Of a stretch of DNA of 64,000 bases, positions 5,419 to 60,980 are shown in pieces (the first letter of the stretch is position 1; every line of letters begins with the position of its first letter). The stretch is from the NCBI GenBank assembly GCA_934234185.1, contig CAKQHO010000004.1:15576-79575 (forward strand), written 5' to 3'. The notes beneath the pieces are model-generated. The model saw only the letters and a list, made by a program, of their open reading frames with translations. It was not told the origin of the DNA and searched no databases. A program made the position numbers and the translations under genes. Source of the stretch: an uncultured Psychrobacillus sp. (GTDB taxonomy: Bacteria; Bacillota; Bacilli; Bacillales_A; Planococcaceae).

Positions 5419-6447
5419 ATGATTTCTCACAAATTACATAATCGATTTTCTGCACTTGAACAGCATGTATTCGAAACCTCCCAATCTCTTTTTAGTACGG
5501 GAGCGGCGGTGATAGTTATACATAATGATGAAATCGTTACGGAAAGGTATTGGGGAAAGCAGTCTACTAATTTAGACGCTAGAGAGGTTCAAGAGGATAC
5601 GCAATTTCATGTTGCATCCGTAAGAAAAAGCTATATCGGATATGCGGTCGCATATGCTGTTTATCATGGCTATGTGGAATCAATTGATGACGAGGTAACA
5701 AAGTATTTCACTGACTTGAATACAGAATTATATAAGGATACGACCGTCCGCCATCTTTTAACACATTCCCATGGCTTAAAAGAGGTAGATGGAGAAATAA
5801 TACGAGAGTTTGCACCGGGAACAAGCTGGGCTTATAGGCAGATTAATATTAAGCTACTTACGGAATTGGTCAAAAAGACAACAGGGAAAAGCGTGGCAAA
5901 GATAATTAGGGAAGAGGTTTTTAAACCTTTAGGCTTCACCCAAAGTGGATGGTACACAGAACCAAACGAAAAACTAGCAGAGGTTATTAAGGAGGATGGA
6001 GAATCGAATTGGTTTCCCTCTACAAGTACAGAAGGTGATCAAGTGAATATGTATGTCTCTGCAAGGGAGTTGGCTTTATGGGGGTATATCTATTTAAAGG
6101 AAGGTAACATAAACGGGAAGCAACTCGTGAATAAAGATATTATAGAATTAGCTAAATCACTACAAAGTCCCTCCACTATAGATAAGGATCTCCCACAGCA
6201 TGGCTTCCTTTGGTTTGTAAAGGACCTTCCGGCTAAGAAAAATGAAATTGGTTCATTAGTTCCTAAAGAATCCTTCCAAATATTAGGGTTTACAGGTCCT
6301 GCAGTGCTGGTCATACCGGAGGAGAATATCGTAGCTGTTCGTATGCTTAATAGCTTTGGCTCGCCAAAGAACTTTGACTTTTTAGGCAGTATTCGTAGCT
6401 TTGGTGATACAGTAATGAAATGTTTAGAGGGGAAGCAAGGTAATTGA
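5419..6447 (+). CDS. serine hydrolase, beta-lactamase family
   Basis: 342 aa with SxxK motif 'SVRKSY' and a 'HLLTHSHG' region typical of class C beta-lactamase-related esterases. Confidence 0.7.
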   Translation: MISHKLHNRFSALEQHVFETSQSLFSTGAAVIVIHNDEIVTERYWGKQSTNLDAREVQEDTQFHVASVRKSYIGYAVAYAVYHGYVESIDDEVTKYFTDLNTELYKDTTVRHLLTHSHGLKEVDGEIIREFAPGTSWAYRQINIKLLTELVKKTTGKSVAKIIREEVFKPLGFTQSGWYTEPNEKLAEVIKEDGESNWFPSTSTEGDQVNMYVSARELALWGYIYLKEGNINGKQLVNKDIIELAKSLQSPSTIDKDLPQHGFLWFVKDLPAKKNEIGSLVPKESFQILGFTGPAVLVIPEENIVAVRMLNSFGSPKNFDFLGSIRSFGDTVMKCLEGKQGN

Positions 6448-6669
6448 TATCCAGCTAGTTAAATAAAATAGTATGGAATACCGATCAAGGCATAGAGGAA
6501 TGAATCCGGCAGATGATGGTTTTCAGCAGCTGAAAAAATTTAAAAGGTGTAATAAAAAATTTGCTAAAGGATTGATTAGAGGTAATAGAGTTTGCTGTGC
6601 TTCAGTCAAGCAATCACCAAACAGCTATACTAACTATTTTCATCCATTGGAGAAAAAATAACACTAGGG

Positions 6670-6696
6670 AGGGGTGTCCAGTTATTGGCCACCCCT
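6670..6696. terminator. hairpin terminator downstream of the anti-sigma/sigma operon
   Basis: AGGGGTG ... CACCCCT stem immediately after the stop of the minus-strand gene at 6703, with T-rich tracts on both sides. Confidence 0.5.
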
Positions 6697-6702
6697 TCAC
6701 TT

Positions 6703-7776
6703 TTACTGTGCCATGTAATCTTCTCTTTTAATGGGATCGAAGGAGCTCTCTAGCCAAACAGCCCATGCAGTAAAACTCCCGTTTAATGTAAAATACACTT
6801 CTTGTATTTCAGGGTATTTCCAGATAACTTCTACTAATTGTTGAAAAATAATGCCGCTTTCATTAGAAGTCATCGAGCCATAAAGGGATCGTAAATCTGC
6901 AAACTCTATCACTGCCACTCCTTTTTCATTAATAGCTATGCCATTCAACATATTTGCAAATCCAAAGGAGGAAAGCTCTCCACTTAGTAACTCGTTAATC
7001 TCTTTCTCAAGCTCAGGAATTCTCTCTCCATGCTGCTCAAGGTCAAAGAACATTCCAGCAGTGTGAGTATAATCTATTTGATTTCTTACTGTTTCGTCTA
7101 GGATTACCTTTGGTTTTATTCTTTGATCCTTAATATGTGAAATGAGCCACTTGTCATCTTCCTTTTGAAATTGAAGATGAATATTGAATGCATCGTTTTC
7201 TTTTGTAATAGCATGAAAAACTAATTGATATACTTCGCTTCCCTTATCTGTAAAGCCATAGTTGATTAGCTCGGAATATACAACGTTACTTACATAACTC
7301 CATTCATTTTCTTCAAATCGATAGCCATCCGGAAATTCTACATACAAGTTGCGGTGAGAATCCCAATCTACAATAGTATTGGAAATAAAGTTATCTTCCA
7401 CACCGTAGCAGTTAAAGCAAAGGAAGTAACGTTGACTAAATCGCTCTAGCTCTATTTTCAGCTTCTCCGCTTCTTCATCTTGTATTAATGAGACTATTTC
7501 CTCCTCCTCGCGTTCTTCTTCAGGTTCAGTTATTACCGTTGGAGGAGCAGGGTCAGGAGTGGACGTGCTGGGTGATTTCTCGGTTGGTGTAATAATGGAT
7601 AGAGTTAAAATAGCAGCTATACTTACTATCATTAAAGCTACACTTGGAATTAGAAAGCGGAAGGTCTTTTTCTCCTCTTTACTAGTGATTTCTTGAATCA
7701 TCCGTTTTTTCGTATCCTTTGTAAAAAGAGACTTGTTGCCAAGGAATTGTTCTACTTCTTTCTTTATATCATTCAT
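6703..7776 (-). CDS. membrane-anchored anti-sigma factor candidate with GerMN-like C-terminal domain
   Basis: Overlaps the stop of the upstream ECF sigma gene by 8 nt. Has a single TM ('FRFLIPSVALMIVSIAAILTLSII') after a short cytoplasmic N-terminus, then an acidic linker. Confidence 0.5.
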   Translation of the reverse strand: MNDIKKEVEQFLGNKSLFTKDTKKRMIQEITSKEEKKTFRFLIPSVALMIVSIAAILTLSIITPTEKSPSTSTPDPAPPTVITEPEEEREEEEIVSLIQDEEAEKLKIELERFSQRYFLCFNCYGVEDNFISNTIVDWDSHRNLYVEFPDGYRFEENEWSYVSNVVYSELINYGFTDKGSEVYQLVFHAITKENDAFNIHLQFQKEDDKWLISHIKDQRIKPKVILDETVRNQIDYTHTAGMFFDLEQHGERIPELEKEINELLSGELSSFGFANMLNGIAINEKGVAVIEFADLRSLYGSMTSNESGIIFQQLVEVIWKYPEIQEVYFTLNGSFTAWAVWLESSFDPIKREDYMAQ

Positions 7777-8414: not shown

Positions 8415-9152
8415 GTCGGGCGATAGAGAGACGTGATCAATCGAAAAGAGGGGGTTATCAATCGAAAATGAGGGTCTATCGATCGAAAAAGGGAGGGAAT
8501 CGAGCGATAATGAAGGGAATCAATCGAAAGCGAGAGACCGAAGAGAATCGAGCGATTAGAGCCAGTAATCGAGCGGAAGTGAAGCGCTATCAATCGAAAA
8601 GAGGGGATTATCAATCGAAAATGAGGGTCTATCGATCGAAAATGGGAGGTTATCGAGCGATTAATGAAGGGAATCAATTGGATAGCGAGAGAACGAAGAG
8701 AATCGAGCGATAATAGCCAGTAATCGAGCGATAAGAGTCAGTAATCGAGCGGAAGTAAAGTGCAATCAATCGAAACCGAGGGTCTATCAATCGAAAAGAG
8801 GAGGTTATCGAGCGATTCTGATAGGGTATCAATCGAAAAGAGACCCATCGATGCGCTATCGATCGAAAAGAGCCAGTAATCGAGCGGAAGTGAAGTGTTA
8901 TCAATCGAAAAATGAGTCCTATCGATCGAAAAGAGGAGGTTATCGATCGATTAATGAAGGGAATCAATCGGATAGCGAGAGACCAATGAGGATCAATCGA
9001 TAATAGCCAGTAATCGAGCGGAAGCGAAGTGTTATCAATCGAAATCGAGGTCCTATCAATCGAAAAGGCGAGGTTATCGAGCGATTAATGAAGGGAATCA
9101 ATCGAAAGCGAGAGACCGATGGGTATCGAGCGATTCTGATAGGTATCAATCA
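8415..9152. repeat. ~740-bp array of degenerate ~21-22-bp modules (cores TCAATCGAAAAG / TCGATCGAAAA / TCGAGCGAT) with higher-order periodicity
   Basis: 'cgattaatgaagggaatcaat' recurs near 8655, 8945 and 9078, with a variant near 8505. The sequence between them is made of TCRAKCGA-type modules. The three minus-strand ORFs here translate to repetitive FRSI/FRLI strings. Confidence 0.85.
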
Positions 9153-33414: not shown

Positions 33415-33446
33415 CTTGCATGTGATTTTTACTTTACATTTGATTT

Positions 33447-34110
33447 GGATTTATTTTACAAATATATTTAATCGATTAACGATTACTACCAATACGTGCG
33501 GTTTAGGACTGGTTACTTGCGATTGATGGGGGAATACTTGCGGTAGGATAGCGGTTACTTGCGGTTAGTGTAGAAATACGTGCGAAAGTGGTATTTCCTT
33601 CGATTGGTATAGCTGATAACTGGATTTATTTTACAGATTAATATTTATTATTAGGAGATAACTACCAATAAGTGCGGTTGAGGACTGTTTAGTTGCGATT
33701 GATGGGAGAATACTTGCGGTTGTGCGGAGTTTACTTGCGGTTAGGGCAGAAATAAGTGCGAAAGCGACATTTCCTTCAATTGGCGCAGCTGATAATTGGA
33801 TTTATTTTACAGATTAATATGACATTTTAGGAGACGACTACCAATACGTGCGGTTGAGGACTGGTTACTTGCGATTGATGAGCGAATACTTGCGGTTGTT
33901 CGGAGTTTACTTGCGGTTAGGGCAGAAATACGTGCGAAAGTGGTATTTCCTGCGATTGGCGTAGCTGCTAACTGGATTTATTTTACAGATTAATATTACA
34001 TATTAGGAGATAACTGCCAATACTAGCGGTTTGATATTGGTTACTTGCGGTTGTGCGGAGTTTACTTCGGGTTAAAGCAGAAATACTTTCGAAGACGGAC
34101 TTTCTTAGAT
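33447..34110 (+). repeat. 176-bp tandem repeat, ~3.7 copies, each unit built of ~22-bp TACTTGCG/TACGTGCG modules plus an AT-rich segment
   Basis: 'ggatttattttaca' recurs at 33447, 33622, 33798 and 33974 (periods 175/176/176). Inside each unit are accaatacgtgcggtt, ggttacttgcgattg, gaatacttgcggt, agtttacttgcggtt and aaatacgtgcgaaag. Confidence 0.9.
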
Positions 34111-34352: not shown

Positions 34353-34850
34353 GTGCAAAGAATCGCTAATCTGCTTATATGTAAGGATAACCAAGTTCTT
34401 TTATTGAAAAAGCCGAGAAGAAATTGGTACGTTGCCCCAGGTGGAAAGATGGAGGAAGGCGAATCCATATTGATATCTGCTGTTCGGGAATTTACGGAGG
34501 AAACAAATGCAGTACCCATAGATCCACATCTTAAAGGAATTTACACAATGGTAATTGAAGAGAATGGTCTAAAAAAAGACGAGTGGATGTTGTTTACATT
34601 TGTCGCAAAGGATATAGAAGGTACCCCTTATGAAGAAAATAGAGAAGGTGTCCTAGAGTGGCATCCGGTAGAGGCGCTAGAACATTTACCGATGGCAGAA
34701 GGAGATCGGACGAATTTAATGTTTGCTGCAAAGGAATTAGGTATGCAGTATGGCACGTTTGTCTATACACCAGAATTTGATTTGATCAAGGAAACGATAC
34801 AACGATCATGGGAAGGAGAACTGAAAAGTGGAGACTCTGCAAAAGCTTGA
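34353..34850 (+). CDS. NUDIX hydrolase (YvcI-like)
   Basis: Nudix box '[23 protein letters not shown]'. GTG start. Synteny with yvcI upstream of rapZ. Confidence 0.85.
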
Positions 34851-38871: not shown

Positions 38872-38900
38872 CTTGCCCCTGTAGTTTAATGGATATGACG
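38872..38900 (+). repeat. attL core: 29-bp direct repeat containing the first 26 nt of tRNA-Arg (truncated copy)
   Basis: cttgcccctgtagtttaatggatatgacg is identical to 60952-60980. The sequences diverge immediately on both sides. Confidence 0.9.
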
Positions 38901-38936: not shown

Positions 38937-39036
38937 TCGTACTGCGATAGCGCAGCGATACCTACGTAGTATTCTTTCGCTTAAAATACTACGTAAGAAT
39001 ATGACGTAACCTCCAATACCTCCGTTGATTCGCGTA
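38937..39036. repeat. left-arm repeat cluster (candidate arm-type recombinase/RDF binding sites)
   Basis: tcgtactgcgatagcgca (38937-38954) and atactacgtaagaatatgacgtaa (38986-39009) recur at 60801-60818 and 60777-60800. There is an internal palindrome, tacgtagtatt (38963-38973) / aatactacgta (38985-38995). aatacctccgttgattcgcgta (39015-39036) is inverted relative to 60870-60890. Confidence 0.75.
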
Positions 39037-40029
39037 ATAACGAATTGGACGGGGGTTTTTATATTGTCACGAAAATCAATACAGAAGTCGTTGGTAAACG
39101 AAATCAATAGGGCGGTAGGAAGAGAAGATAAGGTGAGTGCCGTTTCCTTTGTGGATGCCATTGATACGTTTATTAATAACGGAGAAATAAAAGGACTCTC
39201 TGAACGTACATTATTCACTTATAACCACGAATTAAAACGTCTAAACTTGCATTTTATTAAAAACGGTGTAGACACGTCGGACATACTTAATATTCGGGAG
39301 TCACATTACGAACAGTTTGTAACTGATTTGCTTAAAGCAGGGTACGCGAGAACTACGATAGGTATGCGTCTTCAGACGGCCAAGATTCTTGGGAACTTTT
39401 GTGTCCGTAAGGGTTATATACCTAAGAATTACGCGGCGGAGGTGCCATCATTAAAGGTGAGAAAAAAGGTTGGCGATACTTTTACAAAGTCGCAACTTAA
39501 GCGTATCTTGGCTTCTCCTGATGTTACTACCTTTGAAGGTTTACGTGACTTAACGATGATGTTGGTATTTTCTGATACAGGCATTCGGTTGAGCGAATTG
39601 CAAGCCATCAAAATTAAAGATATTGTATTCTCTGACAATGCTTTAAATGTTCAACGTACAAAGAACGGCTATGCCCGGCGTATTCCACTTACAAAGCGTT
39701 TAGGAGACGTTTTAAGGCTCTATCTACAAGTCAGAGGTGTGGAAGATGCAAATGACTTACTCTTTGTTAAATCGGATAATACGGGCATTTCTCAAGTGAC
39801 TATACAGTTTCAGATACGTGAACATGGACGTAGAAGCGGTGTTATTAAACAAGTCCAATGTAGCCCTCACGTATTCCGTAGAACATTTGCTAAGTTTAAG
39901 ATACAGGCAGGGGTAGACATATTTACTTTACAAGCACTAATGGGTCACAGTGACATAGGAGAGTTGCGTAATTACGTCGCTGTTTATTCTACTGATTTAG
40001 ATGCCGCGATAGAAAAGGGGATAGATTAA
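39025..40029 (+). CDS. tyrosine recombinase / integrase (Int1)
   Basis: Catalytic signature 'TGIRLSE' (Arg), 'HVFRRTFA' (HxxR), 'LMGHSD' (His), 'RNYVAVY' (Tyr). Adjacent to attL. The true start is uncertain; GTG at 39133 follows AGGAAGAG. Confidence 0.88.
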   Translation: MIRVITNWTGVFILSRKSIQKSLVNEINRAVGREDKVSAVSFVDAIDTFINNGEIKGLSERTLFTYNHELKRLNLHFIKNGVDTSDILNIRESHYEQFVTDLLKAGYARTTIGMRLQTAKILGNFCVRKGYIPKNYAAEVPSLKVRKKVGDTFTKSQLKRILASPDVTTFEGLRDLTMMLVFSDTGIRLSELQAIKIKDIVFSDNALNVQRTKNGYARRIPLTKRLGDVLRLYLQVRGVEDANDLLFVKSDNTGISQVTIQFQIREHGRRSGVIKQVQCSPHVFRRTFAKFKIQAGVDIFTLQALMGHSDIGELRNYVAVYSTDLDAAIEKGID

Positions 40030-40111
40030 TTTAGATTCAAAATAAAAGAAAATTTTAAAATGAGCTTGGATATAATTTTTCAAGCTCATTTTTATATGCT
40101 TTTATAGGAGC

Positions 40112-40348
40112 TCACTTTTTCAAATTTTTTATTATATCTTCATTCCACATTAAAAATTGCCAGGTGCGTTTAGCGTATCCTCCATATCCATTATCTTTTT
40201 GGCTTATTTCAGCAAATTGCTTGCCTAATTCTGTTAAAACCCACTTACCTGGTTCGCCGTTGATGTAACCATTTTCTTTCAATAACAAGTTTACCTCTCT
40301 TGATGTAATACCTAAAACTGTTCCAAGCATCTTGGCAGACATATTCAT
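40112..40348 (-). CDS. small DNA-binding-like protein (regulator or excisionase candidate)
   Basis: ATG at 40348 follows AGAGGAGGG. HTH-like 'SAKMLGTVLGITSREVNLLLKE'. AT-rich patch, second gene of a two-gene minus-strand operon. Confidence 0.5.
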   Translation of the reverse strand: MNMSAKMLGTVLGITSREVNLLLKENGYINGEPGKWVLTELGKQFAEISQKDNGYGGYAKRTWQFLMWNEDIIKNLKK

Positions 40349-40410
40349 GTATTTCCCTCCTCTTCTAAATTTGCAGTACTCAAGCTTCAATTTAAAATAG
40401 CTGATTTCTC

Positions 40411-40644
40411 TTATTCTACGATAAAAATATCCTCGACTGCATACTTCTTAGGGCGTTCCTTTTCGATACTGATTTGATTTAAGACGGAGAGAATGGAAAC
40501 GATATTTCCTAAACTGATTGATTTGCTACTGCCATTCACCATGTCTCTTATAGTTCCTGGACGGATCTTCGATTCTACTGCTAATTTGTTAATCGTTATA
40601 TCGAGTTCTTTTAGCGTATGTCCTAAAGTGAATTTAACTTCCAT
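40411..40644 (-). CDS. XRE-family HTH regulator
   Basis: ATG at 40644 follows AGGGAGG. 'LKELDITINKLAVESKIRPGTIRDMVNGSSKSISLGNI' has the Cro/C1-type HTH pattern. Confidence 0.65.
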   Translation of the reverse strand: MEVKFTLGHTLKELDITINKLAVESKIRPGTIRDMVNGSSKSISLGNIVSILSVLNQISIEKERPKKYAVEDIFIVE

Positions 40645-40917
40645 CCCCGTTACCTCCCTATTTATTTCCATTATAGCGTATGGACAAGCTAAATAAATAT
40701 GACGAAAATTGTAATACTTTTAAAGTAGTACGAATAAAGTACGATATAAACAATTCCAGATGACGGTCCTGTTCGATTTCTACGTTGGAATCGGATTAGG
40801 TAACGGTTAATACTTACCTATACAACGCCTGCAACACGATTTTTCTACTTCCAGTTAGGCGCAACTCTTACTACGTAAGATAACCGTCTGTGGCGATAAC
40901 TTTAAGGAGGGGTATCG

Positions 40918-42279
40918 ATGTTATTCGAGGTGATAACGACTTCACTTATGGGAGGGATAGCGCTAAATGCGTTTGTGAAAAGGAAGGGATTAGTTACGAA
41001 TGATTCGGGGAAAATTCAGCGGATCATTTCACTTAGCGGATTAAACGTTCGCGATGGGAAAGACGTACTCACTACGCAACTTATACGTAAAAAGCAATAC
41101 GAGTGGGGCTGGGAGTATTCTTATCGCATCCCGTTAGGGCGTAGCTACGAGGACTATCTCGCTAAACAGCGCGTCCTCGAGGATGGACTAAACAATCGAC
41201 GCCAGCGGATAACATTTGCGGACTTGAAGGCGTTGCAGCTAGACGGCAATATCATCGAGAATTTAAAAAACTTATGGACTAATAAGTTGACTGAACGGAA
41301 GGAAATCGAGATTATATTCGATGGATTGCTTAAAATACGCGTCTATAACGAGCCATTACCTTCGGAGGTGCCGTATGTACCTGGCGCTAATTGGAGCGTA
41401 CCTATTGGCGTTACTCGCGATAGGAATACGTTTAAATTCCACGACTTCGAGCGTATTCCTCATGTGGTCTTAGGTGGCGCTACTAGATACGGTAAATCAA
41501 ACTTTATCAATACGATGATTACGAGCTTGCTGCAGAGTAATCCCGATCATTTACGTTTACATCTTATCGATTTAAAGGGCGGTGTAGAGTTATGCGATTA
41601 CGAGAACATACAACAGACGGTATCTATTGCTTACGAGCCGGAAGAAGCCTTAAATACTCTACGCACTGCCTACGAGGAAATGAGGGAGTTACAGATGCGT
41701 TTACGTGTACTAGGGAAGAAGAACGTCCAGGAGGCAGGTATTAAGGAACGCCATTTCGTGATTATCGACGAAGTTGGCGAACTAAATCCGAGTGAAGCGG
41801 TAACTCGTGAGGAAAAATCTCTTAAACTTGAATGTCAGACGTTAATGAGTCAGATTGCTAGATTAGGCGCAGGATTAGGCTTCAGACAGATTCTTGCTAC
41901 GCAATATCCGACTGGCGATTGTATACCGCGTCAGTGTAAGCAAAATAGCGATGCGAAGATAGCTTTTCGAGTACAATCGGCTACTGCGTCAAGGGTCGTA
42001 TTAGACGAAAGTGGTGCCGAGTTATTGCCGCAAATTAAAGGTCGTGCTATCTATCAAACGGCTGATAAGCGAGAGATACTGCAAACGCCTCTTATTACTA
42101 CCGAGATTATTCAAGGAACGATTAGGCCTTACATCGCAGAGAAGGAGGCTAAGGCGATTGATAAAGAAATCACTAGACCAACGCGACGAGAAGATACTGC
42201 TGGCGCTCAAAAAGTGGGACTTTCTAACGCGGGACCAGTTACAGACGTACTTCAAGTTAGGTTCGATACGGAATACTAA
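40918..42279 (+). CDS. FtsK/SpoIIIE-family DNA-translocase / coupling-protein-like ATPase
   Basis: N-terminal TM ('LFEVITTSLMGGIALNAFV'), Walker A 'GGATRYGKSN', Walker B 'HFVIIDEVGEL', 'ILATQYP' (the FtsK ATQRP-like motif). Strong RBS AAGGAGGGG. Confidence 0.85.
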   Translation: MLFEVITTSLMGGIALNAFVKRKGLVTNDSGKIQRIISLSGLNVRDGKDVLTTQLIRKKQYEWGWEYSYRIPLGRSYEDYLAKQRVLEDGLNNRRQRITFADLKALQLDGNIIENLKNLWTNKLTERKEIEIIFDGLLKIRVYNEPLPSEVPYVPGANWSVPIGVTRDRNTFKFHDFERIPHVVLGGATRYGKSNFINTMITSLLQSNPDHLRLHLIDLKGGVELCDYENIQQTVSIAYEPEEALNTLRTAYEEMRELQMRLRVLGKKNVQEAGIKERHFVIIDEVGELNPSEAVTREEKSLKLECQTLMSQIARLGAGLGFRQILATQYPTGDCIPRQCKQNSDAKIAFRVQSATASRVVLDESGAELLPQIKGRAIYQTADKREILQTPLITTEIIQGTIRPYIAEKEAKAIDKEITRPTRREDTAGAQKVGLSNAGPVTDVLQVRFDTEY

Positions 42280-42760
42280 TAGAGTCCTAAAGGAGCTATC
42301 ACCGTATCTTTTATCGATTCGAGACGGCTATCAGACGATTTATTATCTAAATAACGAGGGTAGAGCTTATGTCGATTGCTCTAAAATCCGCAAGAAAGCA
42401 TCCAACGTAAAACATACCGTCATGCGTAACCAGTTCTGGCTACATAACGGCTGTCCTCCCGACTGGAAGAACGAAGTTAAAGTCACGGATGGGAAGGTTA
42501 AAGCGGTAGTAGATGCGATGTTTACGAAGAGTTTGCAAACGCATTTCCTCGAAGTGGACCACGCACAGATCATGCGAGAGAATAGGGCGAAGATAGGGCG
42601 ATTTAAGGAGTTTTACGAGCGAGGTCTTATCGAAAAGACGCTTGGACACTTTCCAATCGTTGTGTGGCTTACCACAACGGAACATAGGCGTAGACAATTG
42701 GAGGAAGCGTCGAAGGTCTTGCCGCGCTTTAGAGTATACACGTTAGAGGATTTACGATAA
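42158..42760 (+). CDS. replication-relaxation family protein (relaxase/replication-initiator-like)
   Basis: N-terminal 'RDEKILLALKKWDFLTRDQLQTYF' is a winged-helix pattern typical of that family. The TTG start at 42158, 9 nt after GAAGGAGG, is inferred. The ORF-track start at 42011 would add 49 aa inside the FtsK-like gene. Confidence 0.6.
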   Translation: MIKKSLDQRDEKILLALKKWDFLTRDQLQTYFKLGSIRNTNRVLKELSPYLLSIRDGYQTIYYLNNEGRAYVDCSKIRKKASNVKHTVMRNQFWLHNGCPPDWKNEVKVTDGKVKAVVDAMFTKSLQTHFLEVDHAQIMRENRAKIGRFKEFYERGLIEKTLGHFPIVVWLTTTEHRRRQLEEASKVLPRFRVYTLEDLR

Positions 42761-42775
42761 AAGGGAGGAAATCGA

Positions 42776-43300
42776 ATGTTTAACCGTAAGCATAAAATCG
42801 AGGTCGTACCGGAATCCGAATATACGGACTTCAGCCATCGCGTACCAGGTGACGCATATGCAACGAGAAAGACGGTCGCAATAGCGGCTACGGTGCCTGC
42901 AGCGGTAAGTATCGGATTATTAGCGCATAGGCTGTCGGAAGGAAACGCAAGTGCCGAGCAAGCCATAACGGCTTCAGCGCCAATAGTCGAGCAGGCTCCG
43001 ATTTTCGCTCCGCAGTATGCTCCGATACAGACGTCTAATTACGATATGATACCGACGGGATTTGTCGCTGATAAGTCGTTGGAGATGTTAGCTAACGTAC
43101 TGGATCCTGTTATTCAGATACTCGTAGCGATTAGCTTTCCGATTGCTAGCGTAATCATGATAGGCGCGTGTTTCTTCTTTATGTTCGGCAATAGCGAGAA
43201 GGCATGGTCGATGATTATGAACGCAGGACTCGGCTATGTTTTAATTCAACTATCGCCTCTATTCCTCGATATTCTGCGCAAAGTAGGCGAAGCGGTATGA
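42776..43300 (+). CDS. small membrane protein with VirB2/TrbC-like topology
   Basis: N-terminal hydrophobic segment ('VAIAATVPAAVSIGLLA') plus two C-terminal TM helices ('VIQILVAISFPIASVIMIGACFFFMFG', 'MIMNAGLGYVLIQLSPLF'). Strong RBS. The family assignment is speculative. Confidence 0.4.
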   Translation: MFNRKHKIEVVPESEYTDFSHRVPGDAYATRKTVAIAATVPAAVSIGLLAHRLSEGNASAEQAITASAPIVEQAPIFAPQYAPIQTSNYDMIPTGFVADKSLEMLANVLDPVIQILVAISFPIASVIMIGACFFFMFGNSEKAWSMIMNAGLGYVLIQLSPLFLDILRKVGEAV

Positions 43301-43397
43301 CGATTAGCTAACGAAAAGTTAATGAAGCCCTAACGGACAGTAATTTTTGCGGTGTATTAGTTTTAGTATATTGCTAGAATTTGAATTAAAGGGAGGG

Positions 43398-44369
43398 ATG
43401 ATTGTGGTACGAAAAAAATCTGTATTTACAGTGACAGATGATTTATCAGATGTATTTAATAATCTAACTATCAAGTCAGATGTAACTGTACTAAAGGCAT
43501 TAGAAATAATTCTTAAACAAATGAAAACAACTGGCAATCGTGAAAGGACTCTCTATGATTATGACAAACAAATAAACCATTTCGTTAGGATTACAGGAGT
43601 GGTAAATATCTCTGATATAACAGTTTTTCACATTTACGATTGGATTGAGAGTATGGAAGTAAGTAATGTAACTAAGTTGACCCGTTTGAAGTGTCTTAAA
43701 GCTTTCTTGAATAGATGCTTTAAACTTGGTTGGTTATCTATTCAATTTTGGAATGACATAAAAATTAAAGTTGATAGCCCGATAAAAGAGGGAGCGACAG
43801 AACAAAATGTTCAAACTTTATTAAGACATTTGGATTTTAATGATTTTTTTCAATTACGCGATGCTACAGCTATTTTGACTATGTATCAGACTGGTATTAG
43901 AATTGGTACATTATCGAAAATCACAGAGGGACACATTGACTTAGAGGAAAATGTATTACGAATACCTGGTTCAATAGTAAAAAATCATGAAGAGTTAATA
44001 CTGCCCTTTGACGATGTCTTAGCTCGTTTATTTACGGTACTATTTAAACAAAATGCCATTGTCAGAAAGAATGCAAACAGAAGTAATCAATTGGTATTTA
44101 TAACGAGAAGTGGCGGCTCTAGTCAAAATACAGCGATGAAGAATAACATAATTAGTAAACGTATTGCTCAATACGCTAAAAAATTCAATATAGAAAACGT
44201 TAATCCGCACGCTTTAAGACGTGGATTTGCAATAAATTTGCGAAAAAAGGGTGCTAATATATCACTAATTTCTAATGCATTGGGACATAGTGATTTATCG
44301 GTAACCACACGTTATTTACATTACGATAAATTAGAAATCGCAGAAGAATTACGCAATTTTCTCAAATAA
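43398..44369 (+). CDS. second tyrosine recombinase / integrase (Int2)
   Basis: 'TGIRIGTLSKI' (Arg), 'HALRRGFA' (HxxR), 'LGHSDLSVTTRYLHY' (His, Tyr). Lies in an AT-rich patch. The start is ATG 43398 or GTG 43404, after AAGGGAGGG. Confidence 0.85.
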   Translation: MIVVRKKSVFTVTDDLSDVFNNLTIKSDVTVLKALEIILKQMKTTGNRERTLYDYDKQINHFVRITGVVNISDITVFHIYDWIESMEVSNVTKLTRLKCLKAFLNRCFKLGWLSIQFWNDIKIKVDSPIKEGATEQNVQTLLRHLDFNDFFQLRDATAILTMYQTGIRIGTLSKITEGHIDLEENVLRIPGSIVKNHEELILPFDDVLARLFTVLFKQNAIVRKNANRSNQLVFITRSGGSSQNTAMKNNIISKRIAQYAKKFNIENVNPHALRRGFAINLRKKGANISLISNALGHSDLSVTTRYLHYDKLEIAEELRNFLK

Positions 44370-45932: not shown

Positions 45933-46040
45933 TTACGTATTTATTATCGTACACTTGCGAGCAAACTCTCTGACATCTGCGTTAGTGTACACTCAATGCG
46001 ACTCTTTAAGCCGATGGGAATCGAAAAAGTTTCATATAAA

Positions 46041-46198
46041 ATACTCGCGCCAACGAGTATGAATACGGTGTGACTGCGCCAACAGTAACGCCAATCGAAA
46101 TTACGCCAATAGTTTCGATGAACTTAATATAGTAACTTGCGCCAACAGGTTACGAACGAAGAGGGATGTCGCGCCAACGATGTTCCTCTTTTTTGTTG
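46041..46198 (+). ncRNA. candidate structured RNA (or ssDNA element): five hairpins with invariant CGCCAA hexaloop, the last one terminator-like
   Basis: H1 46041-46060 ATACTCG[CGCCAA]CGAGTAT. H2 46071-46088 TGACTG[CGCCAA]CAGTAA. H3 46094-46119 ATCGAAATTA[CGCCAA]TAGTTTCGAT. H4 46133-46152 TAACTTG[CGCCAA]CAGGTTA. H5 46160-46189 AGAGGGATGTCG[CGCCAA]CGATGTTCCTCT followed by TTTTTTGTT. The stems differ in sequence but stay complementary, and the G-T wobbles work only on the plus strand. Confidence 0.45.
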
Positions 46199-46206
46199 CA
46201 CTTAGT

Positions 46207-46492: not shown

Positions 46493-46585
46493 CTCCGCAC
46501 TAGCGATTCTCAAACGATATAACTAGTAGGGGAAGTTCTCCGAAAAGCTCCGCACTAGCGATTTTCAAACGTTAATACTAGTATA
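46493..46585 (+). repeat. two ~38-bp direct repeats, 55 bp apart (iteron-like)
   Basis: ctccgcactagcgattctcaaacgatataactagta (46493-) and ctccgcactagcgattttcaaacgttaatactagta (46548-). Each contains an ACTAG...CTAGT inverted pair. Confidence 0.75.
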
Positions 46586-54651: not shown

Positions 54652-54800
54652 TGCGAAAAGTAGAACGAGGCGTCACTATCGTCGAAGTCGAAGGCGGCTT
54701 TCCGATGACCGTTTATAAGCTTCGGAAGATGTCGTTAGAAGCGATAAAACGATATGGACTGGAAAAGTACGTAAGGGTGAGTGATAAGGATGACGCATAA
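54651..54800 (+). CDS. 49-aa hypothetical protein
   Basis: Not in the ORF track. TAATG overlap with the HNH stop. RBS AAGAAGGAGG upstream. Confidence 0.45.
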   Translation: MRKVERGVTIVEVEGGFPMTVYKLRKMSLEAIKRYGLEKYVRVSDKDDA

Positions 54801-55161
54801 TCGGAAAATAACGAAGTATATCGAGAATCACTGCGCTAATTATGCCGGGGGCGGTCTTTGTCACCTTGCTACGTCGGAAAACGGCTCTCGACTATGCCCA
54901 TTCTTCTACGACTTGGGGCGTAAATGCAAATACGCAGAGCAATCCGTACTACCTGGCGATTATTCGATACTAGCGCTATACAATATGAACAACAAGGGAA
55001 CTACTTCTGCCGACTACTGCGAACGATGCAAAGAGCCATTTGAGCGGTCGAGTCCTCGCCAAATACGTTGTAAATCATGCACTGAAATCGTGCGTAGGAA
55101 TAATCGGAGATATTATAACGCTAACTACCGCAATAAGACGGTTAATAAAAGTACATTTTAG
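54790..55161 (+). CDS. cysteine-rich protein ('Cys-rich VLP'-like)
   Basis: 'HCANYAGGGLCHL...CPFFYDLGRKCKYAEQSVLPGD' contains the VLP motif. C-terminal zinc ribbon 'YCERCKEPF...IRCKSC'. Confidence 0.5.
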   Translation: MTHNRKITKYIENHCANYAGGGLCHLATSENGSRLCPFFYDLGRKCKYAEQSVLPGDYSILALYNMNNKGTTSADYCERCKEPFERSSPRQIRCKSCTEIVRRNNRRYYNANYRNKTVNKSTF

Positions 55162-55282
55162 AAGCTGAACAGCTCGTATTTGGCTAGTTTTAACGTATAT
55201 ATACGGGATAAAAAGAAGTCAGGTGTATTTCTAAGGGGATACGCTTATTTGTCGTCAAAATGTACTTGCGGGAGTGGTGACA

Positions 55283-55543
55283 ATGTACAAAGTGAAGATA
55301 AAAAGAACAAAGGAAGAGACGAAGCTGAACGTTAAAACTAGTGTCCCGGACGAAAAGCCGTTCATATTCAAGTCATTGAGTCCGACGATAACGCGTGAAC
55401 ATATACGACTGATACTTCCGAGGATGATTGATTGTGAACGGGACAAGCGTAATAGGAAAGCGTATCGGAAAGAGGAACTTACGAAACTACGTGAAGAGAA
55501 AGCAGCTAAGGCAGAGCGTTTTAAGGAGGTGCCGAATGAGTAA
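55283..55543 (+). CDS. hypothetical basic protein
   Basis: ATG at 55283 lies 5 nt after GGGAGTGG. 86 aa, Lys/Arg/Glu-rich. Confidence 0.5.
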   Translation: MYKVKIKRTKEETKLNVKTSVPDEKPFIFKSLSPTITREHIRLILPRMIDCERDKRNRKAYRKEELTKLREEKAAKAERFKEVPNE

Positions 55544-57578: not shown

Positions 57579-57902
57579 ATGTACAAAGAATATCGCATCA
57601 AAGTCGAGAAGGATATTCACGGCAGAACTTCGGTTACTGGACGTCCGCAGATGCCAGGATTCCGCTATACAGTGACGGCTGAAACCGATACTAGTGTCGA
57701 GAAATTGACGTCAGTAACGAATAAGCCGCTATACGAGGCACTAGACGAGGCACTATCGATCCTGCTAATGTTACTGGCGCAACGTGACGAGCAGGCAATT
57801 GTTAAAGTCGTTCATTATACCGTACCTGTAAGCGATGGGCTTAAACGGATGCTAGCGGATAAGTACGCCAGCGAATCGCAATTCGTAAATCTGATACTAT
57901 AA
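57579..57902 (+). CDS. hypothetical protein
   Basis: 107 aa. RBS TAGGGAGGAAA. Last gene of the long rightward operon. Confidence 0.6.
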   Translation: MYKEYRIKVEKDIHGRTSVTGRPQMPGFRYTVTAETDTSVEKLTSVTNKPLYEALDEALSILLMLLAQRDEQAIVKVVHYTVPVSDGLKRMLADKYASESQFVNLIL

Positions 57903-58152
57903 ACGGCGCTCTACTTCTTAAACGGAGGTAGGGCGTCTCTTTTTTTGCTGATTTTCGGTGATAATAACTAATATATGTAATTACGTAGAGATACGTAGAA
58001 TAGAGCGCTAGAGTCCGATTGACTTGCAACGGTAAAACACGGTCAAACTCCGATTGAAAATAGCGCAATGACGTATGCATTTTAACGTAGATATAACATT
58101 AAATAAATACGCGCTTGCACAGTCGAAACATTGCACGCATAGGACACGTTCA

Positions 58153-58824
58153 TTATAGCGGTATATTATATAGAAGAAACTCCGTTTTACTGATGTCCGA
58201 TAATGCCGAATTTTGCACGATTTTCGCTATATTTTAACGGGCATAACTGTGCACTTTTCGTGTTAGATTACGTTATATTTTTTGCAATTTTAACTCGTCA
58301 AAACACGTCAAATCCATCGGAGTACATCGGAGTAAATAACGATAATTTCATGCAAGTTGGCGCAAGTTTTATCGTACATTATCAGACTATAACCGCAAGT
58401 TTACTAAAATGACGTAATTAGCTTCGTTTATATAGAAGGAATGCGGATTCTACGGTTTAGTACGCTTTAGTTTATGGTTGCGATTTCTTGCGATTTATCA
58501 GGCGACTTGCTGCCGCGTGCGAGAGTCCAAACGCTTTAAACGTGTCCATCGGTTCGATTATCGTACTAGGTCGATGTAAACTAACGAAATATTATCGCAG
58601 TATATAGAAGAAAGCCGTAAATGGCGTTTTACATACGTTGTCACTATGAGCATATCGCAGGGTTCAATCAGGCGATCCGTTCACCAGGCGATGCCTTCGA
58701 AAAACCGAGGGGTCGCATAACGTTATTATCGAATAGCTATATAGAAGAAACTGCGTAATTATGATGCGACTATTTGCGACTCTACTCGGAACTAGCGCAA
58801 TTATCGAAGGTTATATAGAAGGAA
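58153..58824 (+). repeat. iteron field: five TATATAGAAGRAA boxes, four of them preceded by ATTATMG
   Basis: Boxes lie at 58167-58179, 58429-58441, 58601-58613, 58738-58750 and 58812-58824. ATTATAG/ATTATCG lies 3-7 nt upstream of boxes 1, 3, 4 and 5. The region also holds CAGGCGA three times (58499, 58669, 58685) and TTGCGATTT twice in tandem (58478, 58488). Confidence 0.8.
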
Positions 58825-58920
58825 AGCGAAATAATCAGTTCCGAATAGTTCCGATTTACAAGGTGAGAGGGTCTGGCGTGCGTGTCTCCGATTACTTTGC
58901 GTAATCATAACTGTTAAGTA

Positions 58921-58949
58921 TTGACTACGATATGCCAACGTGATAAGAT
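58921..58949 (+). promoter_or_regulatory. sigma-A promoter candidate of the serine recombinase, bracketed by CGTAATCAWAA repeats
   Basis: TTGACT, 17-nt spacer, TAAGAT, with TG at -15/-14. CGTAATCATAA at 58900-58910, CGTAATCAAAA at 58961-58971, CGTAATCATAA at 58974-58984. Confidence 0.5.
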
Positions 58950-58998
58950 AGCCTTATAAACGTAATCAAAACTCGTAATCATAAATGGAGGCTATCGA

Positions 58999-59562
58999 AT
59001 GACACGATACGGCTACGCAAGGGTAAGCGGAACGTCACAGGACTTAACAGAACAGATTGCGAGATTACAAGACGCAGGATGCACCGAGATATTAAGCGAG
59101 AAGCATACCGGTACTAAGAAGGAAAGACCGGAGTTCCAACGTGTGCTATCGCTATTGCAAGAAGGAGATACGTTAGTAGTTACGAAGCTAGACCGCTTTG
59201 CTCGTTCGGCAGAGGATGGCATAACGATTATCAAGGCGCTTATAAGACGCGGTGTAAGCGTTCATATACTGAATATGGGCGTAGTAGAGGACACGCAGAT
59301 AGGTCGCTTGCTTCTTACGATAATGGCAGGCTTCGCGGAGTTCGAACGAGATATGATCGTGGAGAGACTAGCGGAAGGAAAGGCGCAAGCAAAGCAGCGT
59401 GACGACTACCGAGAAGGTAGACCGAATAAGTTTTCGAAGAAGCAACTCGACCATGCTATGACGTTACTAGAGACGCATAGCTATACGGAAGTCGAGCGCA
59501 TGACAGGCATAAGTAAAGCGACACTGACGAGACACAAACGAAAGATCAAAGCGAAGACATGA
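58999..59562 (+). CDS. small serine recombinase (resolvase/invertase family)
   Basis: '[12 protein letters not shown]' (catalytic Ser), '[12 protein letters not shown]', and C-terminal HTH '[14 protein letters not shown]'. 187 aa. Confidence 0.9.
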
Positions 59563-59664
59563 TCGAATGTGGTCGTGTCTTTTTTTATACGGGGGGGCTT
59601 GCGAAAATCAAACCGCGCTGTCCTGGTGGCTGAAATTTACGAGCAAAAAATTTTCACTTGGGGG

Positions 59665-60636: not shown

Positions 60637-60776
60637 ATTGTAATACCTCCTATTCCATACCATAATATACCACTACTATATATGAAAAAGGATCTTATTT
60701 ATAGATTATTTTTAAAGATGCTAAACATAATTGGAAAAGATACCTTGCACAGAAAACACAAGCGTTAATCCTACAA

Positions 60777-60890
60777 ATACTACGTAAGAATATAACGTAA
60801 TCGTACTGCGATAGCGCATCGAAATATAAGCGATATTGCCTTAGCGATTAATCGTATGGTATACTAACCTACGTGAATCAACGGGGTATT
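60777..60890. repeat. right-arm repeat cluster (partners of the left-arm sites)
   Basis: atactacgtaagaatataacgtaa (60777-60800) and tcgtactgcgatagcgca (60801-60818) are direct copies of the left-arm motifs. tacgtgaatcaacggggtatt (60870-60890) is the inverted partner of 39015-39036. Confidence 0.75.
60836..60865 (+). promoter_or_regulatory. outward-facing promoter candidate inside the element, ~90 nt upstream of the intact tRNA-Arg
   Basis: TTGCCT, 18-nt spacer, TATACT, preceded by TGG (extended -10, TGnTATACT). Confidence 0.4.
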
Positions 60891-60951: not shown

Positions 60952-60980
60952 CTTGCCCCTGTAGTTTAATGGATATGACG
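60952..60980 (+). repeat. attR core: 29-bp direct repeat (start of the intact tRNA-Arg)
   Basis: Identical to 38872-38900. Confidence 0.9.

Follow-up and report, generated by a model that had tools for sequence, protein, structure and literature searches.

This work concerns a gene-free field of repeats in the window, a 64-kb stretch of DNA from an uncultured Psychrobacillus sp. The field lies in the gap (57903–58998) between a long plus-strand operon, closed by a strong terminator, and the gene for a 187-amino-acid (aa) serine recombinase, within an island of about 22 kb that looks like a satellite-like, phage-derived element integrated in tRNA-Arg. We tentatively interpret the field as the packaging-recognition and terminus region of this island, on the concatemer-junction side, an interpretation that seems to us quite possible and somewhat short of probable. 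Observed directly are the anatomy of the field, its conservation, its lack of features of RNA genes, origins or centromeres, a gene order shared with phages, and its similarity to a phage terminus. Packaging junctions as such are known, and the new features are the 2–5 boxed modules, the invariant 13-mer, the concerted one-turn duplications and the setting in a satellite-like island. An earlier, sequence-only reading of the same DNA had proposed for the gap a plasmid-like origin or centromere, a set of promoters or a battery of small RNA genes.

Structure and conservation of the field

Exact search of the window recovered the five copies of TATATAGAAGRAA that the sequence-only reading had listed, all on the plus strand between 58167 and 58824 (starts in Table 1) and 262, 172, 137 and 74 bp apart, with no further copy at 0 mismatches in the 64 kb and with 23 matches at up to 2 mismatches, compared with 9.6 +/- 3.0 in shuffled sequences. 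Four of the boxes have ATTAT(C/A)G upstream, as had been noted, except that the distance is 3–10 nt and not 3–7 nt; box 2 is without it. The strongest statistical feature of the field is a set of local duplications at an offset of 10 bp: ten separate segments with at least 7/8 identity were found within 57940–58900, all ten words being different, while control windows of the same island had a mean of 0.9 and a maximum of 3, and offsets other than 10 bp within the field gave about zero. The duplications after the boxes had been noticed before, and they are real and stronger than first described. Three copies of CAGGCGA (58499, 58669 and 58685) and the inverted hairpin-array motif were likewise found as reported, the latter, GTTGGCGCAAGTT at 58356–58368, being the sole inverted copy of the GCGCCAAC loop motif of the hairpin array at 46047–46178.

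The field is built of paralogous modules, each consisting of a 13-bp box, 20–60 bp with one or two 10-bp-period duplications and, in units A, B and D, the site ATTTATCA/GGCGA with a GC-rich block (the slash marks a putative cut); measured from the box, ATTTATCAGGCGA and the GC-rich block lie 50–86 nt downstream in these three of the five units. CpG spacing peaks at 10–12 bp, the CpG excess itself being element-wide and not specific to the field, and because CpG and T-tracts are phased in the duplicated stretch the DNA is probably bent. Long-range CpG phasing was considered and rejected, there being no coherent long-range periodicity. The gap is gene-free, as had been claimed, but it is not all field, since the operon terminator takes up 57905–57937, the conserved field ends at 58898, and 58899–58998 belongs to the recombinase. 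An open reading frame (ORF) noted earlier at 58203–58412 is present and is not conserved in relatives; comparison of the relatives revealed no conserved ORF in the field, and indels between orthologous units are not multiples of 3.

Table 1. Features of the field and the adjoining recombinase module (window positions; a slash marks the putative cut; L-numbers are loci of relatives)
Feature	Position	Strand	Remarks
Intrinsic terminator closing the long operon, left field limit	57905–57937	+	14-bp stem, then T run
Conserved start-of-field motif GATTTTCGGTGATAATAACTAATATAT	57950–57976	+	unique in window; twice in L118; diverged in L005, L119, L120
Pre-box region, pairs TACGTAGA x2 (57982) and ACGGTMAAAC x2 (58029)	57982–58048	.	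TCCGATTGA flanks at 58014, 58049
Box 1 TATATAGAAGAAA, opens unit X (58167–58428)	58167–58179	+	pairs at 58262, 58292, 58313, 58352
Box 2 TATATAGAAGGAA, opens unit A (58429–58600)	58429–58441	+	unit A orthologous to first unit of L003, L005, L118, L119
Unit A tandem pairs, 10 bp: TACGSTTTAG x2, TTGCGATTT x2	58451–58498	.	phased T-tracts
Unit A terminus-like site: ATTTATCA/GGCGA, GC-rich block, AAACGCTTTAAACGTG	58494–58545	+	putative cut after 58500, by analogy
Box 3, opens unit B (58601–58737)	58601–58613	+	
Unit B sites: CAGGCGAT x2, 16 bp apart (58669, 58685); CGTTCACC; invariant GAAAAACCGAGGGGT (58699–58713)	58664–58713	+	
Box 4, opens short unit C (58738–58811)	58738–58750	+	pair TGCGACT x2 (58765–58783); unit C identical in L005
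Box 5, opens unit D (58812–58898)	58812–58824	+	pair AGTTCCGA x2 (58837–58856)
Unit D terminus-like site TTTACAAGGTGAGAGGGTCTGGCGTGCGTGTCTCCGATTACTTTG	58856–58898	+	among sites feeding the profile; L005 orthologue aligns to 268TH002 boundary
Recombinase module, outside the field: CGTAATCAWAA at 58900, 58961, 58974; promoter TTGACT-17-TAAGAT (58921–58949); GGAGG ribosome-binding site	58899–58998	+	
Small serine recombinase, 187 aa, Resolvase and HTH domains	58999–59562	+	
Conserved block 3' of recombinase: G run (59591–59597), about 45 nt, CGAGCAAAAAATTTTCACTTGGGGG (59640–59664)	59591–59664	+	

Relatives were collected through a 107-aa protein encoded directly upstream of the field, for which 11 homologues with 63–96% identity were obtained, and their contigs were inspected for fields. 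Six more fields were found: L003/L004 (Psychrobacillus psychrodurans), L005, L118, L119, L120 and, in part, L123, where L-numbers denote relative or phage loci and the window element is W. Among the carriers found, only P. psychrodurans (L003, GCA_022603175.1) is a cultured organism. The sequence-only reading had proposed box conservation in homologous elements as a check, and of the 18 boxes in W, L003, L005, L118, L119 and L120, 16 indeed carry an identical 13-mer, the degenerate copies being L005:10855 and L119:~660, with one additional degenerate box in L123. The 107-aa protein beside the field is only 63–75% identical, and about 64% for five related elements in which the 13-mer is invariant. 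Elements have 2–5 boxed modules; orthologues of units A, B, C and D follow one another in constant order from element to element, with unit X as an extra unit in the window. Conserved words are TCAGGCG, AAACGCTTTGAAACGTGTAAC, CGTTCACC and GAAAAACCGAGGGGT. Paired copies co-change between elements (TCCGATT/TCCGATT, CCCGATT/CCCTATT, TGCGATT/TGCGATT), and because both copies change together the identity of tandem copies is maintained, by selection or by homogenization. The claim of a non-coding, repeat-built field is borne out by these comparisons, which suggest that it is conserved as a cis-acting region.

Wider searches added nothing to this set. A scan of genome contigs with the pattern ATTATYG-N3-7-box returned 111 loci, every one a single chance match, and scans of metagenome and viral contigs for relatives of the field returned nothing related. 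Plasmid and phage collections held no homologue of the 107-aa protein, and a literature search for the 10-mer found nothing relevant.

Similarity to phage genome ends

Three relatives (L003, L005 and L118) encode homologues of the small terminase gene terS (HTH_Tnp_1_2 family; 46–54% identity), and their products have counterparts in Sporosarcina phage Lietuvens (54%), Bacillus phages 268TH002, 268TH007 and phi18-2, the Paenibacillus Halcyone cluster, and Mgbh1. Packaging in these phages involves short direct terminal repeats. Repeats of 310 bp have been mapped by PhageTerm in 268TH002 and 268TH007 (PMC9476937), and those of Halcyone-cluster Paenibacillus phages, with the same terS family, measure 377–378 bp (PMC6070908); the repeat is annotated at 437 bp in Lietuvens and is 309 bp in phi18-2. 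We re-derived the terminal-repeat boundaries from the phage sequences. In three of the phages (Lietuvens, 268TH002 and phi18-2), terS is followed in order by the terminal repeat, a gene for a small tyrosine recombinase and the large terminase gene terL, and in L003, L005 and L118 the terS homologue is followed by the field and a small recombinase gene, the terS homologue sitting 1.2–2 kb upstream of the field with 3–5 small genes between. The position beside a small site-specific recombinase is conserved in 5 related elements and 3 phages.

A profile was built with nhmmer from 11 field sites around CAGGCG only and was searched against 1.06 Mb of sequence (131 records, about 110 of them unrelated). 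Its top match was 268TH002 at L134:2951–3001 (E 6e-4), spanning the left boundary (L134:2959) of the 310-bp repeat, and the phi18-2 boundary was the third-ranked match, which is consistent with homology between the field sites and a mapped genome end. The left repeat boundary of 268TH002 and phi18-2 reads ttttatCA/GCCGAGGCTCACTGGCGCGTGACCCCTCGATCACTTTCGG while unit D of L005 reads tttatCAGGCGAGAGGGTCTGGCGTGCGTGCCTCCGATTACTTTCG, and blastn aligned the latter to the 268TH002 boundary at 72% over 46 nt (E 0.001). Every unit thus has a portion that resembles the genome end mapped by experiment in related phages, and this suggests a role in DNA packaging. Words resembling TATATAGAAGRAA, namely TATATGAAGCG or TATAAGAAGCG, stand 60 nt before the cut in 268TH002 and phi18-2, as weak look-alikes only.

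Other points of resemblance concern layout, sequence and composition. Like the field of the terS-bearing relatives, the terminal-repeat boundary of 268TH002, 268TH007, phi18-2 and Lietuvens follows a block of terS and head genes and lies beside a small recombinase, and the pattern TTTATCAG(G/C)CGAG..TGGCG..GTG..CC(T)CGAT(T/C)ACTTTCG is common to this boundary and to units D and A. Phages and element further share a CpG-rich composition, and both have G/C-run blocks at the far side. In the elements the far-side block occurs past the recombinase gene in five of five, whatever the type of recombinase, as CCCGGGGG, a spacer of about 55 nt and CGAGCAAAAwwTwTCACTTGGGGG (L003:12380–12450, L005:11745–11825, L118:2340–2412, L119:1660–1733, and the window copy in Table 1), and it resembles the region of the right terminal-repeat boundary in the phages.

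A further observation that fits was made in Mgbh1 (L128, NC_041879), where an unannotated 1.3-kb non-coding stretch (5770–7240) immediately precedes terS. Nowhere else does the 59-kb genome show an excess of 10–12-bp tandem duplications like that of the field, and positions 6819–6857 are weakly similar to unit B. The published description of Mgbh1 reports no significant repeats in the genome (PMC5135824).

Proposed role in packaging

If the field is a packaging site, induction or helper infection would cause the element to be replicated into concatemers, and an oligomer of small terminase would dock on the box and the phased repeats, bending the DNA. The window element would use the small terminase of a helper phage, because it has no recognizable terS of its own. 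Judging from the PhageTerm-mapped termini of 268TH002 and phi18-2, the large terminase would then cut at or near ATCA/GGCGA. More speculatively, packaging might proceed rightward through the recombinase gene, with the G-run/TCACTTGGGGG block serving as the right terminal-repeat boundary.

Several observations weigh against this interpretation. Similarity with the phage terminus extends over a short stretch (about 50 nt) and is only moderately significant, and in the blastn control one of 100 shuffled queries reached the score. The box profile found nothing significant in the phage genomes, where only the weak look-alikes TATATGAAGCG, TATAAGAAGCG and TCTAATAGAAGGAA occur after terS. The phage boundary is single, lies 72 nt after terS, has no exact box and bounds a repeat of 310–437 bp, whereas the elements have several modules, 3–5 genes between terS and field, and the recombinase gene inside the putative repeat, which from field to G run would measure 0.7–1.1 kb. 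Units X and C have the box and lack the CAGGCG site, the field is absent from three relatives (L006, L121 and L122), and no recognizable terS was found in the window element, for which a correlation of terS with the field fails. Ends have been mapped by PhageTerm in the phages, and those of the element are putative ends predicted from sequence.

One account of the multiplicity, which strikes us as a rather long shot, would make the array a set of alternative packaging-initiation modules with a shared box and cleavage motif, the 10-bp "barcode" of each module docking the small terminase of a different helper. If true, one satellite could be packaged by several helpers, or could choose among terminal-repeat lengths, and a multi-helper adaptor of this kind would be a mode of satellite-helper matching so far undescribed.

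Known packaging systems offer partial parallels. In phage SPP1, pacL and pacR, regions with phased short repeats and bent DNA, are bound by the small terminase, and helical-phase short repeats with probable bending recur in the field around a putative cleavage site; the SPP1 pac region, however, is about 270 bp, lies within gene 1 and serves headful packaging, while the field is about 0.9 kb, non-coding and multi-modular. Satellites such as the Staphylococcus aureus pathogenicity islands (SaPI) and other phage-inducible chromosomal islands (PICI) hijack packaging by a TerS of their own or by a helper cos site. The island resembles them as a 15–22-kb element with an integrase, a repressor, replication genes and genes related to head assembly, and with its own terS in relatives, and differs in additionally carrying tape-measure and chaperone genes. 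Like them, it would require a packaging signal suited to the terminase of a helper. We know of no satellite with a multi-module packaging array or with this 13-mer.

Packaging signals set which DNA particles carry and hence how satellites and islands spread by transduction, and the recognition sequences of Gram-positive short-terminal-repeat phages and of any satellites exploiting them are essentially unknown. The field offers a compact and conserved candidate, with an invariant 13-mer, concerted one-turn words and a motif in agreement with a mapped genome end, and it connects a rare family of 22-kb islands of Psychrobacillus-like Bacillales with the CpG-rich phages 268TH002, phi18-2, Lietuvens and Mgbh1.

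Alternative explanations

The boxes could instead be promoters or conserved 5' ends of transcripts, used by host RNA polymerase with a factor from the element or a helper, and giving rise to sibling small RNAs (sRNAs) or acting like the early promoters A1–A3 of T7. This main rival we consider unlikely. In its favor, the box has no symmetry, an AT-rich part (TATATA) giving way to a purine-rich one, and always has the orientation of the flanking genes; a -10-like TATTAT stands just before several boxes, joined before the B-unit box of L003, L005, L118 and L119 by a -35-like hexamer 16–18 bp upstream despite indels; unit sizes of 74–262 nt suit sRNAs; and Lietuvens encodes its own sigma factor. 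Tandem clusters of early promoters beside the terminal repeats are classical in T7, and because these promoters flank terminal repeats, promoter function would be compatible with the terminus location. The left end of T7 does combine co-oriented promoter-like elements with short-repeat arrays beside a terminal-repeat boundary, as in the field, but T7 promoters of this kind are canonical sigma-70 promoters that drive protein genes, while the field is without a -35 and without ORFs after the boxes. Most boxes lack a -35 at fixed distance, a simple promoter scan misses the boxes of the window, sigma-A promoters are seldom constant at 13 of 13 positions, and in no element does a box stand before a protein-coding gene or operon. 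By informal comparison, the box did not fit sites for sigma-H, E, K, F/G, B or D, extracytoplasmic-function sigma factors, Spo0A, LexA, CodY or SPO1 middle and late transcription. A T7/SP6-type promoter was also considered, TATAGAAG being like the SP6 start region, and was rejected because -17 to -5 is not conserved at fixed spacing; a translation start, brought to mind by the likeness of the box to the complement of the 16S rRNA 3' end, was rejected because no start codon is conserved downstream. As for RNA products, no intrinsic terminators were found between boxes, the sole Rfam match at gathering thresholds was tRNA-Arg, with none in the field even at E up to 10, and the whole field folds worse than shuffled sequence (z +1.5 on the plus and +0.9 on the minus strand). 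Single units fold no better than shuffles on either strand (z +0.5 to +1.4), unit B on the plus strand being the exception (z -2.2), RNAalifold consensus energies are weak (-5.6 and -4.3 kcal/mol) with few compensatory pairs, and the duplicated 8–10-mers have no complementary targets in the window. Each unit of an sRNA battery would have a promoter, a terminator and covarying structure, and here terminators are missing between boxes and covariation is weak; a battery of structured sRNA genes is therefore unlikely, and from the folding, terminator, -35 and gene-context tests the earlier suggestion of a promoter set is possible in itself and not favored. Should the boxes prove to be promoters, they would form a new and very strict class without a -35. 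A related alternative, to our minds very improbable, is a single long transcript from which a sequence-specific endoribonuclease would release unit RNAs by cutting at every box, much as with a type III antitoxin or a CRISPR-like array. The junction repeat of 13–27 nt (GAATATTATCGCAGTATATAGAAGGAA) between units, the absence of internal terminators, and PemK/MazF-like genes adjoining the field in L003 and nearby in L121 would suit it, but the field start has no convincing promoter, the field-bearing elements have no cognate nuclease gene in common, the units are very unequal in length and are conserved between elements, and the junction has no hairpin.

The other two explanations involve the neighboring recombinase. 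A plasmid-like replication origin or partition centromere, with the recombinase resolving multimers, was the first suggestion of the sequence-only reading and now seems improbable. As in plasmid iteron origins and ParR/ParB centromeres, helical-phase direct repeats, on DNA that is probably bent, stand beside small serine or tyrosine recombinases of the multimer-resolution type. Two relatives, L005 (a 21.9-kb contig with no large integrase) and L118, carry a Rep-like gene of the winged-helix type past the recombinase and YhjD, and because of this gene and the lack of a large integrase in L005 at least some relatives look episomal. The recombinase, however, stands between that Rep-like gene and the field, the gene has a repeat region of its own, and the repeats of the field are not one iteron: box distances are irregular (74–262 bp), and ten unlike tandem pairs would demand many binding specificities. 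Iterons and centromeres co-diverge with their binding proteins, whereas the 13-mer does not vary between diverged elements. Searches of the field for DnaA boxes (up to 1 mismatch) and parS sites (up to 3 mismatches) found none, the scanned island proteins have no ParA, ParM or TubZ domain, and no rep, parA, parM, tubZ or other par gene adjoins the field in the window, its neighbors being the 107-aa protein and the resolvase; a better origin candidate lies beside the replication genes, in the hairpin array at 46.03–46.2 kb and the repeats at 46493–46583. Still less probable, in our estimation, is that boxes and pairs are accessory or crossover sites of the adjoining recombinase, whether as a res site, an invertible segment or a cassette array, although the field always lies directly upstream of a small recombinase gene and unit X has the form of an extra box-plus-unit inserted exactly at a box. 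The recombinase beside the same field is of three serine types and one tyrosine type, L003 and L118 having different serine recombinases with different upstream repeats and L005 a 193-aa tyrosine recombinase module in place of the serine one, and since the field stays unaltered when this module is exchanged, it is not a site that belongs to the recombinase. Boxes are all in direct orientation, unit order is constant between elements, and the recombinase of W and L119 brings its own repeats from exactly 58899, the two sequences being 96% identical from that point on and different just upstream. It is these CGTAATCA repeats (58899–58998) that form a candidate res site, since subsites appear to co-vary with the recombinase there and not in the field (57.94–58.90 kb). 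The three CGTAATCAWAA copies, a single one and then a tandem pair 13 bp apart, overlap the TG-extended recombinase promoter, and the arrangement at 58899–58990, which moves along with the recombinase gene, is similar to res sites of the Sin or beta type.

The island and its other features

The island (38.9–60.95 kb) is bounded by a 29-nt exact direct repeat (38872–38900 and 60952–60980) that is the 5' end of tRNA-Arg(CCG). Further words are common to the two ends in shuffled order (38937–39009 and 60775–60837). Observed/expected CpG is 1.2–1.7 in the island and 0.6–0.9 in the host flanks, and the value of about 1.7 in phages Mgbh1 and Lietuvens matches the island's excess. Island genes include two tyrosine integrases, a block of FtsK-like, replication-relaxation and TrbC-like genes, a cI-like repressor, a YonV-like protein, a tape-measure protein with a chaperone, an HNH protein and many small ORFs, and among them is a homologue of Bacillus phage Mgbh1 gp17, which in Mgbh1 is a head-module gene between the scaffold and capsid genes. 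Because no portal, capsid or large terminase was found among the island proteins, many of whose ORFs lack annotation, the island looks like a satellite-type or defective phage element; its attachment repeat in tRNA-Arg and its gene content would suit a PICI-like satellite. A lead concerning YonO was dropped, as the island has no YonO.

The left part of the island (39025–44369) comprises a tyrosine integrase, FtsK-like, Replic_Relax and weak TrbC-like genes and the second tyrosine integrase, and may be a small mobilizable element nested in, or in tandem to, the phage-like part. A four-gene insert with FtsK and replication-relaxation genes has been reported in phage 268TH007 (PMC9476937). The hairpin array (46030–46200) has four short hairpins with the common loop GCGCCAAC (46047, 46076, 46139 and 46171) and is followed by a 36-nt direct repeat (46493 and 46548) upstream of the XRE/YonV-like replication block; the region at 46.0–46.6 kb is likely an origin or regulatory site of the island. 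After the HNH gene and a 49-aa ORF, some 480 bp (54800–55283) have no gene call in the source metagenome annotation and contain overlapping weak ORFs only, and this may be another cis-acting region.

The 107-aa protein adjoining the field upstream (57579–57902) has no Pfam or PHROG match. Its structure model (predicted local distance difference test score 84) has an RNase-H-like fold, with Argonaute PIWI, RNase H, RuvC and terminase nuclease as closest structural neighbors at template-modeling scores of about 0.6. Elements without a field carry the gene as well, so that the two are not linked. In L003, a 61-aa gene and a 122-aa PemK/MazF-like gene, probably a toxin-antitoxin pair, lie between the 107-aa gene and the field (L003:10496–11053).

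Two repeat arrays were observed outside the island. At 33446–34053, upstream of genes starting at 34353, there is a tandem array with a 176-bp period and 3.5 copies, containing a 21-nt sub-repeat (ACTTGCGGTTGA...). The other, a long array at 8436–9121, repeats every 21 nt (ATCAATCGAAAAGAGG...) and shows higher-order periods of 134 and 155 bp. Small ORFs on the minus strand overlap with this array, and CpG is locally raised there.

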